Below are positions 7,322 to 10,300 of a stretch of 32,000 nucleotides of DNA, in pieces. The DNA is from Chlamydiales bacterium. GTDB lineage: Bacteria > Chlamydiota > Chlamydiia > Chlamydiales > SM23-39. The notes beneath the pieces are model-generated. The model saw only the letters and a program-made list of their open reading frames with translations. It had not been told where the DNA came from and ran no database searches. The first letter of the stretch is position 1; every line of letters begins with the position of its first letter. The DNA lies in assembly GCA_965261025.1 (NCBI GenBank), contig OZ253438.1, positions 1,350,001-1,382,000 of the forward strand. Direction: 5' to 3'. The position numbers and the translations under genes were made by a program.

Positions 7322-10300
7322 AGTCAAGATATTAAGGGCTGTTGGTGGATGCCTTGGTATTGACAGGCGATGAAGGACGCGTTTACCTGCGAAAAGTTTC
7401 GGGGAGCTGGAAAGAAGCTGTGATCCGGAAGTATCCGAATGGGGGAACCCAGCAAGGAGATCCCTTGTTATCTAGATCTGAATTCATAGGGTCTAGAAGC
7501 GAGACCTGCTGAAGTGAGACATCTCAGTAAGCAGAGGAAAAGAAATCAAAGAGATTCTCTAAGTAGCGGCGAGCGAAAGGGGAATAGCCCAAACCAGAGA
7601 ACTTGTTCTTTGGGGTTGTAGGACAGATAGAATCTTTCTGGATTTTAGTAGAATCTTTTGGAAAGAAGAACGATACAGGGTGATAGTCCCGTATACGAAA
7701 AGAGAAAGAAAGAGATCTGTATCCTGAGTAAGGCCAGACACGTGAAACCTGGTCTGAATCTGGGGAGACCACTCTCCAAGGCTAAATACTAGTCAATAAC
7801 CGATAGTGAACCAGTACCGTGAGGGAAAGGTGAAAAGAACCCCGAGAAGGGGAGTGAAATAGAACCTGAAACCAGCAGCTTACAAACGGTCAGAGGCCTA
7901 TACTCTTTTTAAGAGAATGGCTGATGGCGTGCCTTTTGCATGATGAGCCAGCGAGTCATGTTATACGGCAAGGTTAAGGAGTAGACGCTCTGGAGCCGTA
8001 GCGAAAGCGAGTGTGAATAGCGCGTTGAGTCGTATGACATGGGCACGAAACCAAGTGATCTATCCATGGTCAGGTTGAAGCTGGGGTAAAACCCAGTGGA
8101 GGACCGAACCAGTATCTGTTGAAATAGATTTGGATGAACTGTGGATAGGGGTGAAAGGCCAATCAAACTTGGTGATATCTTGTTCTCTCCGAAATAACTT
8201 TAGGGTTAGCCTTAGATGGATTTTTCTAGGGGTAGAGCACTGGATCTTTGAGGGGGCTTACCGGCCTACCAAAGGGAACCAAACTCCGAATACTAGAAAG
8301 AAGATCTAGGAGATAGACAGTGGGGGATAAGCTTCATTGTCGAGAGGGGAACAGCCCAGATCGTCGATTAAGGTCCTTAATTCTATGTTCAGTGAGTAAG
8401 GAGGTGAAGTTTCTCAGACAATTGGGATGTTGGCTTTGAGGCAGCCATCATTTAAAGAGTGCGTAACAGCTCACCAATCAAGAGACTTTGCGCCGAAAAT
8501 ATTTGGGGCTAAACATAGAACCGAAATCACGGGCGTATACTTTGTATACGCGGTAGGAGAGCGTAGTAAGGGCGTTGAAGGCGTACTGAAAGGAGCGCTG
8601 GAGCGCTTACTAGTGAAGATGCATGGCATAAGTAAACGATAAAGGAGGTGAAAATCCTCCTCGCCGAAAGCCTAAGGTTTCCAGGGTAAAGCTCGTCTTC
8701 CCTGGGTTAGCCGGCCCCTAAGACGAGGCCGAAAGGCGTAGTCGATGGGAAACAGGTTAAATATTCCTGTGCCGCTATTAGGTTATGCGATGGGATGACG
8801 GAGTAAGTTAAGCGTGCGGACTGTTGGATATGTCCGTTTTGTTATGAGGTGGTTGAGAAGGAAAATCCTCTCAAGGAAAGCCAGGTAACAAACAAGGGGA
8901 GCACTTGATGTGAACCGATGGCGTGGCGCGATGCTTCCAAGAAATAGTCTCTAAGCGATCTAAAGCGACCGTACCAAAACCGACACAGGTGGGCGGGAAG
9001 AATATTCTAAGGCGCGCGAGAGAACTCTCGTTAAGGAACTCGGCAAATTATCCTCGTAACTTCGGGAGAAGAGGAGCCTATTTTGGTGAAGAAGTTTCCT
9101 TCTGAGCTGAGGTAGGCCGCAGAGAAATGGCCCAGGCGACTGTTTAACAAAAACACAGCACCATGCAAAGTCGTTAAGACGAGGTATATGGTGTGAAGCC
9201 TGCCCAATGCCAAAAGGTCAAAGGGAGATGTCAGCTTTTAGCGAAGCATTGAACTTAAGCCCTGGTGAATGGCGGCCGTAACTATAACGGTTAACAATCT
9301 AAAATTAGTCGCATTTAGAGGCCGTTGTAAAATCTGGCTATATGCTGGGACGTCTGAGTATGTCATAATACCGAGAAGGTAACAATTTATGAACGCAGAT
9401 AATCAGCAGGAAAGATTTTTGATTACATTTAGATTAGTCTTATCATAAAGGCTAGTTCTAGATGGAGTAGTCAAAAAAATCCTCAGAGGCCATACGCCAG
9501 AATCTGTCTTAAGGCAGATATGATATGGTCCGATCTACATAGCGATATGTAGCCTTTATAAAGGGCAAGAATTTTACATTCTTGTAACACAATGCCTAAG
9601 GTAGCGAAATTCCTTGTCGGGTAAGTTCCGACCTGCACGAATGGCCTAACGATCTGGGCGCTGTCTCAACGAGAGACTCGGTGAAATTGTAGTAGCAGTG
9701 AAGATGCTGTTTACCCGCGACAAGACGGAAAGACCCCGTGAACCTTTACTGTACTCTGATATGGGCTTTTGATGAACTATGTGTAGGATAACCGGGAGGC
9801 TGTGAACAGGGCGCGCTAGCGTTCTGGGAGCCATCCTTGAAATACCGGTCTTAGTTTATTAAGAATCTAACATTACTCCTTGAATCAGGAGGATGGACAG
9901 TGTCAGACGGGCAGTTTTACTGGGGCGGTATCCTCCTAAAGAGTAACGGAGGAGTCCAAAGCTTGCCTCATTGTGGTTGGCAATCACAAGTAGAGCGTAA
10001 AAGTATAAGGCAAGTTGACTGCGAGACCCACAAGTCAAGCAGGTACGAAAGTAGGGTTTAGTGACCCGGCGGTTGAAAGTGGAATCGCCGTCGCTCAACG
10101 GATAAAAGGTACTCCGGGGATAACAGGCTTATCGCCACCAAGAGTTCATATCGACGTGGCGGTTTGGCACCTCGATGTCGACTCATCGCATCCTGGGGCT
10201 GTAGAGGGTCCCAAGGGTTTGGCTGTTCGCCAATTAAAGCGGTACGCGAGTTGGGTTCAAAACGTCGTGAGACAGTTTGGCTCCTATCTGTCGTGGGCGC

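Follow-up and report, generated by a model that had tools for sequence, protein, structure and literature searches.

What is a 303-nucleotide (nt) insert doing in the conserved helix 69 (H69) of a 23S ribosomal RNA (rRNA) gene, and does it leave the resulting rRNA again? The question is raised by a stretch of Chlamydiales bacterium DNA, 32,000 nt in length and referred to here as the window (contig OZ253438.1 of assembly GCA_965261025.1, forward-strand positions 1,350,001 to 1,382,000), in which the 23S gene is interrupted at positions 9292-9594. The interruption is a group I intron that lacks an endonuclease gene and that lies after position 1923 of the large subunit (LSU) rRNA, i.e., at site L1923, as do the other members of a family of introns. 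Most likely it is an intron which has lost its endonuclease gene and which still splices itself. H69 is the RNA of intersubunit bridge B2a, and whether an insert found there is removed, retained, or instead cut is thus of some consequence to the ribosome.

The insertion as such can be read directly. The conserved H69 string is split as GGCCGTAACTATAACGGT, then 303 nt, then CCTAAGGTAGCGAAATTCC, with the insert beginning TAACAATC and finishing ACACAATG, and as shifting that boundary by even one base fails to rebuild the conserved exon string, the boundary is unambiguous. An initial annotation, made from the sequence alone, had claimed an interruption of exactly this length, which the reading bears out. 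The interrupted gene is part of a complete rrn operon (16S 5596-7149, 23S 7322-10560, 5S 10637-10751), one whose 16S-23S spacer is without tRNA genes. Its 23S match (RF02541) extends over 3239 nt versus the 2925 positions of the model, that is, the gene is about 314 nt longer.

Placing the insert within standard, Escherichia coli numbering requires some care. The numbering reference was the annotated 23S gene of E. coli O157:H7 (L240; NZ_AP018488.1 230304-233201), which at 2898 nt is a copy that is 6 nt shorter than the 2904-nt reference, and counting naively along it gives 1917 for the U that precedes the insertion. In that copy, however, four independent landmarks (the 1051 fragment, 2056, 2445, and 2654) show offsets of -4, -6, -6, and -6, respectively, and therefore the base before the insertion is U1923 in standard numbering. 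The insertion point is found between U1923 and C1924, i.e., in the 3' strand and at the base of H69. Those same offsets reject the candidate reading under which the site is the ‘L1917’ of the literature, with true L1917 insertions forming a separate class among metagenome matches; the naive count of 1917 in a short E. coli copy is, that is, readily confused with a separate intron site. The initial annotation had placed the insertion after U1923 and had equated this with the homing site of I-CeuI, and so it is, the I-CeuI target being described as the ‘n.1923 LSU target site’ (PMC3315327).

Is the insert a group I intron? Scanned alone, as positions 9270-9620, it matches RF00028 over model positions 1-253 of 253, scoring 56.2 bits versus a gathering score of 50 (E = 7.5e-14). 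Its minimum free energy (MFE) is -87.6 kcal/mol versus -61.6 +/- 4.3 kcal/mol for shuffled versions (z = -6.0), and a fold that is constrained to the nested group I helices comes to -83.3 versus the -87.6 kcal/mol of the free fold, i.e., 4.3 apart, with the P7 pseudoknot uncounted. Relatives with which to compare it are also at hand. Searching 185,579 species genomes for the 5' half of H69 followed by any base except C gave at least 119 loci (L001-L119), including at least 106 inserts that can be delimited at exactly this site.

From these was assembled a covariation alignment (A1), consisting of the window intron plus 30 L1923 members that are, like it, without an open reading frame (ORF), on which the named helices were scored. 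As the scored helices come from the sequence of the window itself, the percentage paired is inflated by this procedure, though not the counts of compensatory changes. Across the 46 pairs scored, 95.9% of cells are paired versus 35-45% with partners slid by 1-3 columns. Both sides have changed in 20 of the 46 pairs versus 11.4 +/- 1.6 in shuffles, and the observed covariation score was matched by none of 500 shuffles. Helices P3, P5, P7, P8, and P9 covary, while P4 and P6 are invariant and hence uninformative. Both the Rfam model, applied to the insert by itself, and covariation within the proposed helices thus support the group I assignment of the initial annotation.

The helices occur in the order P3-P4-P5...P6-P7-P3'-P8-P7'-P9, with a bulged A9487 in P7 and a GCGA-capped P9, just as originally drawn (see the table for coordinates). 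The core elements P, Q, R, and S can likewise be read from the sequence. There is no P2, as only the 6 nt of J1/3, GUAAAA, separate the end of the guide (9326) from the start of P3 (9333; constrained-fold coordinates). At the 5' splice site, the U·G pair of U9291 (U1923) with G9321, formed as predicted between exon AACGGU and guide GCCGUU, is invariant in 31 of 31 family members. Equally invariant (31/31) are the G9486-C9531 pair, the bulged A9487, and the G9488-C9530 pair of P7. By analogy, the last of these would sit at the position of the guanosine-binding pair, which in Tetrahymena is G264-C311. The last intron base is a G, as also had been claimed, and among the matches listed a terminal G is seen in 104 of 107 family inserts.

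Two features near the splice sites can be noted in their own right. Bases CGUUGU (9323-9328), which overlap the 3' half of the guide, pair with the last six bases of the intron (ACAAUG, 9589-9594) in both free and constrained folds, and a conserved UAAC within the tail motif resembles the UAAC of the exon just upstream of the splice site. This pairing and this mimicry might be involved in 3' splice-site choice or in circularization. By inspection, bases 9314-9318 plus G9320 appear to act as the P10 guide, pairing with the 3' exon at C9595 plus CUAAG 9596-9600. The closest relatives, L074 and L110, are without the L1 hairpin of the window, and their L1 loops carry CCUUAG and CCUUA, respectively, which are complementary to the 3' exon.

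The initial annotation had offered ‘decayed or minimal ribozyme’ as descriptions of this intron. The window intron can be aligned with the other 30 members along the entire core, and it fits 99 of the 123 columns which are at least 90% conserved in the other 30 members, departing at 24. The count of such departures is similar to that of the chlamydial relatives, however, and many are common to those relatives or compensated. Versus L074 in particular, P5, P7, P8, and P9 each contain compensatory double changes, and none of the helices is broken. The seemingly odd P7 of the window, GGCCA/UGGUC, is a recurrent and fully paired variant, found in 19 of 217 related introns alongside GACUA/UAGUC (81), GACUG/CAGUC (65), GACUU/AAGUC (19), and GACCA/UGGUC (14). 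A decayed ribozyme is accordingly rejected, and of the earlier description the ‘decayed’ does not stand: The evidence favors instead a ribozyme with an intact core, one that has lost its endonuclease gene.

Table. Features of the interrupted 23S gene and of its intron (window coordinates)
Feature	Position	Strand	Basis or remark
23S rRNA exon 1, ends in U1923	7322..9291	+	RF02541 match, sequence read, numbering check
23S rRNA exon 2, starts at C1924	9595..10560	+	Sequence read, RF02541 match
Group I intron, 303 nt, L1923, without endonuclease gene	9292..9594	+	RF00028, family alignment, covariation count
P1 5' strand, exon AACGGU; U9291 (U1923) is splice-site U of U·G	9286..9291	+	Pairs with 9321-9326
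Internal guide sequence GCCGUU, P1 3' strand	9321..9326	+	GCCGUU or GCUGUU in 29/31 aligned members
L1 hairpin, UCUAAA 9298-9303 / UUUAGA 9314-9319	9298..9319	+	MFE and constrained folds; window only
P3 5' strand UCUGGC	9333..9338	+	Pairs with 9496-9501; 5/6 P3 pairs with compensatory changes across family
P4-P5 domain	9343..9408	+	P4 invariant; P5, P5b covary; constrained-fold coordinates
P4	9343-9348/9403-9408	+	
P5	9353-9356/9396-9399	+	
P5a	9362-9366/9389-9394	+	Hand-drawn, outside covariation count
P5b	9369-9372/9378-9381	+	
P6 GG/CC	9409-9410/9481-9482	+	
Long P6a hairpin	9415-9426/9467-9480, tip 9427-9466	+	Endonuclease-gene site in relatives; P6/P6a domain 9409..9482
P7 5' strand G(A)GGCCA, bulged A9487	9486..9492	+	Pairs with 9526-9531
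P3 3' strand GCCAGA	9496..9501	+	Alignment, covariation count
P8 hairpin AUCUGUC-UUAA-GGCAGAU	9502..9519	+	5/5 counted pairs covary; constrained-fold coordinates
P7 3' strand UGGUCC; J8/7 AUGAUA 9520-9525 just before	9526..9531	+	
P9 hairpin CUACAUA-GCGA-UAUGUAG, GNRA loop	9535..9552	+	5/7 pairs covary, 100% of cells pair
Peripheral hairpins P9.1 9553-9564, P9.2 9566-9584	9553..9584	+	Folds, alignment; not in minimal chlamydial relatives
3' tail UAACACAAUG, terminal G9594 (omega G)	9585..9594	+	Fits family motif GUAACAAnnnUG
19-codon ORF MNADNQQERFLITFRLVLS plus stop, endonuclease N-terminus-like	9389..9448	+	tblastn vs L010 (E 1e-4), L063
LDGVVKKILRGHTPES, same frame as 19-codon ORF, endonuclease C-terminus-like (cf. 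LDEVLDRILRGHTPNA)	9458..9505	+	tblastn vs L023 (E 9e-5); L126 C-terminus by eye

Was an endonuclease gene ever present? The largest plus-strand ORF lying wholly inside of the intron is the one of 19 codons (see the table). Minus-strand ORFs of 23 and 27 codons exist as well, none being of endonuclease size, and the earlier statement that no ORF exceeds about 19 codons thus holds for the plus strand but not for the minus. The lack of an ORF is not unusual, as among the matches listed 33 of 106 family members are likewise ORF-less, and therefore an ORF is not required for family membership. By length, the same matches consist of 33 short inserts (211-400 nt) and 73 long ones (557-807 nt), with an ORF of at least 90 amino acids (aa) seen in 71 of those 73. 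Two of the long-member ORFs match the Pfam family LAGLIDADG_1, and one is related to I-CeuI (PDB 2ex5, E 3.5e-23). Within sampled long members the ORF starts in the 3' strand of P5 and passes through the core (GCGGACAAUCAGCAGGAAA, encoding ADNQQE), has its body in the P6 loop, and then exits via P7 and P3' (AUCCUCAGAGGCCAUACGCC, encoding ILRGHTP).

Against that layout, the window would seem to retain both ends of such a gene, i.e., the start codon plus approximately 13 N-terminal codons along with approximately 16 C-terminal codons, all in one frame. The first 8 codons of the 19-codon ORF are the P5a'/P5'/P4'/P6 core, and the N-termini of relatives' endonucleases read MNAENQQERLFITEEF... and MNADNQQERFCITEDF... 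The downstream segment, LDGVVKKILRGHTPES, overlaps P6a', P6', J6/7, P7, and P3', and part of its match can be put down to the RNA core being conserved. Nucleotide alignments with ORF-containing relatives (L132 and L126) are collinear except for approximately 400-440 nt in L6. A similar difference is seen within a single genome. That is, the Acidobacteriota metagenome-assembled genome (MAG) MFD06229.bin.2.134 carries, on two contigs, copies of 734 nt (L008) and 281 nt (L078), which share 97.9% identity once a 453-nt segment of L6 is set aside. This pair captures the loss of an endonuclease gene within one genome, and as the two differ by that segment, loss or gain of the gene at the P6 loop is a routine matter in this family. 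Loss in the lineage of the window, rather than the gene never having been present, is the favored interpretation. The ORF of L008 itself looks frameshifted (139 aa). It can be observed, too, that the P7 5' strand of the family doubles as endonuclease C-terminal codons (9486-9505 in the window), with P7 of GACUAU giving endings of ...ILRDY... and GGCCAU giving ...ILRGH...; RNA pairing and protein sequence therefore co-vary.

By its sequence, the window intron is a member of a P2-less intron family that occupies the I-CeuI homing site. Among the matches listed, nearly all have the same guide and core motifs along with the GUAACAAnnnUG tail. Their hosts are mostly Acidimicrobiia, other Actinomycetota, and Acidobacteriota, from soil MAG projects, with further hosts including Gemmatimonadota, Ignavibacteria, Omnitrophota, candidate-phyla-radiation lineages, two Coxiella-like endosymbionts, and two chlamydial MAGs. 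It is these last that carry the closest introns found among the matches listed (L074, 77% identity, and L110, 73%), followed by a Gemmatimonadota copy (67%), one from a Coxiella-like endosymbiont (L093, 63%), and Acidimicrobiia copies (51-60%). Homologues thus do occur at L1923 in related genomes, and the rarity that the initial annotation had implied was overestimated, as at least 106 genomes of bacterial species, along with published archaeal ones (PMC6125680), have a member of the same family here. Scanning metagenomes for the core motif returned a best listed match that is 90% identical over 102 nt, with no nearly identical copy of the window's intron among the metagenome matches listed from that scan.

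Certain relatives differ from the window in having a second intron close by. Twin introns are seen in L074 (3976-4818), L110 (6245-7114, minus strand), and L093 (1-404, minus strand; the Coxiella-like endosymbiont of a tick), where an ORF-less L1923 intron (211, 229, and 352 nt, respectively) is followed by an 8-nt micro-exon, CCTAAGGT, and then by a second intron, located at L1931 or adjacent to it. The second intron of L074 encodes a LAGLIDADG_1 protein (E 1.3e-26), something that is confirmed for L074 only. The window is without such a second intron, as CCTAAGGTAGCGAAATTCC continues uninterrupted after 9595. The 25-nt core motif GTAAAATYTGGCTATATGCTGGRAC also is not confined to one site: The metagenome matches listed (L120-L239) comprise 35 at L1917, 26 at L1931, and 15 at L1923, along with 43 unassigned. 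Going by this motif, L1917, L1923, and L1931 host ribozymes possessing a closely related core.

How would the window's intron splice? In the primary rRNA transcript the guide (9321-9326) would pair with exon AACGGU, putting U1923 into a U·G wobble. Exogenous guanosine, at the G9488-C9530 pair of P7, would then attack after U1923, following which the terminal G9594 would take that same pocket. P10, i.e., 9314-9318 plus G9320 with the first six bases of exon 2, would align the 3' exon, and ligation of the exons would restore an intact H69. Splicing is expected because all of the catalytic as well as splice-site determinants are intact and because an intron without an endonuclease should persist only if it is harmless. 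That is, with its endonuclease gene lost there should be no homing, and therefore inheritance would have to be vertical, which would require continued splicing.

A number of points weigh against this reading in whole or in part. RF00028 was not listed in the gathering scan of the whole 32-kb window, presumably due to speed filters, and even in the scan of the insert its threshold is cleared by only 6 bits. The pair beside the putative guanosine-binding pair is G·U in the window versus A-U in 30 of 30 aligned relatives, although this P7 variant does recur among other related introns. The L1 hairpin, which is found in the window only, ties up the putative P10 guide. The codons of the endonuclease ‘remnants’ double as strands of the core and of P6a that are under RNA constraint, and their protein similarity therefore cannot count as separate evidence that a gene was once there. 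The subgroup, which by analogy would be IB4, is a label that comes from published archaeal LSU/1923 introns (PMC6125680). The argument for splicing, lastly, is one from sequence conservation, and the sole characterized chlamydial rRNA intron, that of Simkania at L1931, was published as ‘unspliced’, at least as its title is cited in PMC11270868 (‘An unspliced group I intron in 23S rRNA...’).

That same precedent, together with the window's G·U pair and an L1 hairpin that competes with P10, is what would favor viewing this as a genuine group I intron that is not excised in vivo, such that mature 23S rRNA keeps all 303 nt at the base of H69. This seems unlikely. Without an endonuclease gene, selection for ribozyme function is the only evident explanation for why the pairings of P1, P3, P5, P7, P8, and P9, along with the U·G pair and the terminal G, have been kept intact via compensatory changes, and an insert that is retained at H69, i.e., within bridge B2a, should be costly. 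Alternatively, the ribozyme might be dead, with host RNases removing or cutting the insert to leave a fragmented 23S rRNA, much as is the case with intervening sequences (IVSs). Bacteria are indeed known to have fragmented 23S rRNAs as well as IVSs processed by RNase III (PMC2801512, PMC4990558), and excision by the ribozyme is a prediction from its sequence. The known IVSs are found in helices 25 and 45 (PMC2801512, PMC4990558), however, and have no ribozyme core, while the insert of the window is located at H69 and has a complete group I core, one lacking any excess of uncompensated changes versus relatives. A chain break at H69 also would still disrupt that helix, and fragmentation of this kind is consequently judged to be highly improbable. 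For functional ribosomes to carry, or to be cleaved at, a ribozyme-shaped insertion of 303 nt at the base of H69, with this L1923 intron going unspliced, is decidedly unlikely, though if true then such retention or fragmentation at bridge B2a would be remarkable. An intron that is intact and self-splicing remains the preferred reading.

The host is a deep-branching, chlamydia-like bacterium with a small genome. Its HtpG shares approximately 54% identity with proteins that carry the names Parachlamydiales, Rhabdochlamydiaceae, and Chlamydiales, and 78% with that of the nearest relative, GCA_964351495.1, in which the region is syntenic, the syntenic block including a gene for the chlamydial histone-like Hc1. 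The contig of that relative breaks off at precisely the point at which the region of the autotransporter and rrn should start. Seven window proteins were found in the protein collection, all as singletons at 90% identity. As rRNA operons commonly give rise to chimeric assemblies, and environmental bacteria have L1923 introns in abundance, a foreign, intron-bearing 23S fragment could in principle have been joined into a chlamydial contig during assembly or binning. The exons and indeed the whole operon are chlamydial, however, and are continuous with chlamydial genes on a 1.42-Mb contig, and no identical copy occurs elsewhere among the metagenome matches listed. The intron in addition has a GC content of 36%, in keeping with an AT-rich host (41% for the window), while most other aligned relatives, mainly from Actinomycetota and Acidobacteriota, have 49-59%. 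This low GC, along with nearest introns among the matches listed that are those of other chlamydial MAGs, argues against a binning chimera, making an artefact scarcely credible. As to the origin of the intron, these properties fit either with long residence in chlamydiae or with exchange among AT-rich intracellular bacteria.

Several previously described introns invite comparison. Ce.LSU.5, the I-CeuI intron of the chloroplast LSU gene of Chlamydomonas eugametos/moewusii, occupies the same site, LSU 1923 (PMC3315327), and bacterial relatives of the window intron encode I-CeuI homologues (above). Ce.LSU.5, however, has a chloroplast host and an active endonuclease, while the window copy is bacterial and has none, and the likening is by site rather than by intron RNA sequence. 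Closer in form are the nine subgroup IB4 introns found at LSU/1923 in archaea, several of which are 278-324 nt in length (Nawrocki, Jones and Eddy 2018, PMC6125680). IB4.17 (284 nt), IB4.21 (278 nt), and IB4.7 (324 nt) thus share the window intron's site and a similarly compact, ORF-less size. The archaeal introns coexist with ORF-containing forms as well as with L1931 introns 8 nt downstream, with both on one archaeal contig, and they too are detected only weakly by the generic RF00028 model (PMC6125680). Their hosts are archaea, and homology to the window intron is suggested by site and architecture.

Among bacterial introns, L074 (OY970065, 211 nt) and L110 (JABDFE01, 229 nt) are the most similar, being ORF-less, of chlamydial hosts, and with the same guide, core, and GCGA-capped P9. 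They are without the L1 hairpin, long P6a, and P9.1/P9.2 and, unlike the window, carry a second intron after the 8-nt micro-exon. The intron of Simkania negevensis is also of group I and also in domain IV of a chlamydial 23S, and L1931 introns found here possess the conserved P3/P4 core motif of the window. It is nevertheless distinct, as the initial annotation had recognized, being located 8 nt downstream at L1931 (the I-CpaI site), 654 nt in length, and in possession of a 143-aa LAGLIDADG ORF (Table 1, PMC1995217). Cbu.L1917 and Cbu.L1951 of Coxiella burnetii, an obligate intracellular bacterium, are group I introns that cluster in this part of the 23S gene, though at different sites (1917 and 1951); the L1923 intron of the Coxiella-like tick endosymbiont (L093) is homologous to that of the window.

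What does this copy add? L1923 group I introns already are known in kind, and the window copy is an additional member rather than a new kind; it opens no new mechanism and resolves no long-standing question. It does represent a second type of rRNA intron for chlamydiae, the literature searched crediting only an L1931 intron, with a 2018 chlamydial paper describing a 23S intron only in some Simkaniaceae, at the I-CpaI site (PMC6019428). A 2007 table of bacterial rRNA introns lists L1917, L1931, L1951, and L2593 only (PMC1995217), and no published bacterial or chlamydial L1923 intron was found in the literature searched, coverage of which was incomplete and even though the sequences themselves are public. 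The I-CeuI site thus is occupied in many uncultured bacteria, of numerous phyla, that older tables do not show. Such introns lengthen the 23S gene and can break primer- or model-based rRNA annotation, and standard annotation would miss this one, RF00028 being reported only with the insert scanned alone. The family furthermore offers natural pairs, ORF-plus and ORF-minus, for study of the gain and loss of homing endonucleases.

Genes neighboring the rrn operon in the window include those for a Legionella-type outer membrane protein and for a PATR autotransporter. The latter is a 2030-aa ORF with PATR autotransporter repeats (10920-17012) that starts 170 nt past the 5S gene. Its 5' third (approximately 11000-13000) has a GC content of 0.50-0.52 and a GC skew of 0.36-0.41, while most coding sequence of the window has a GC content of approximately 0.34-0.45.

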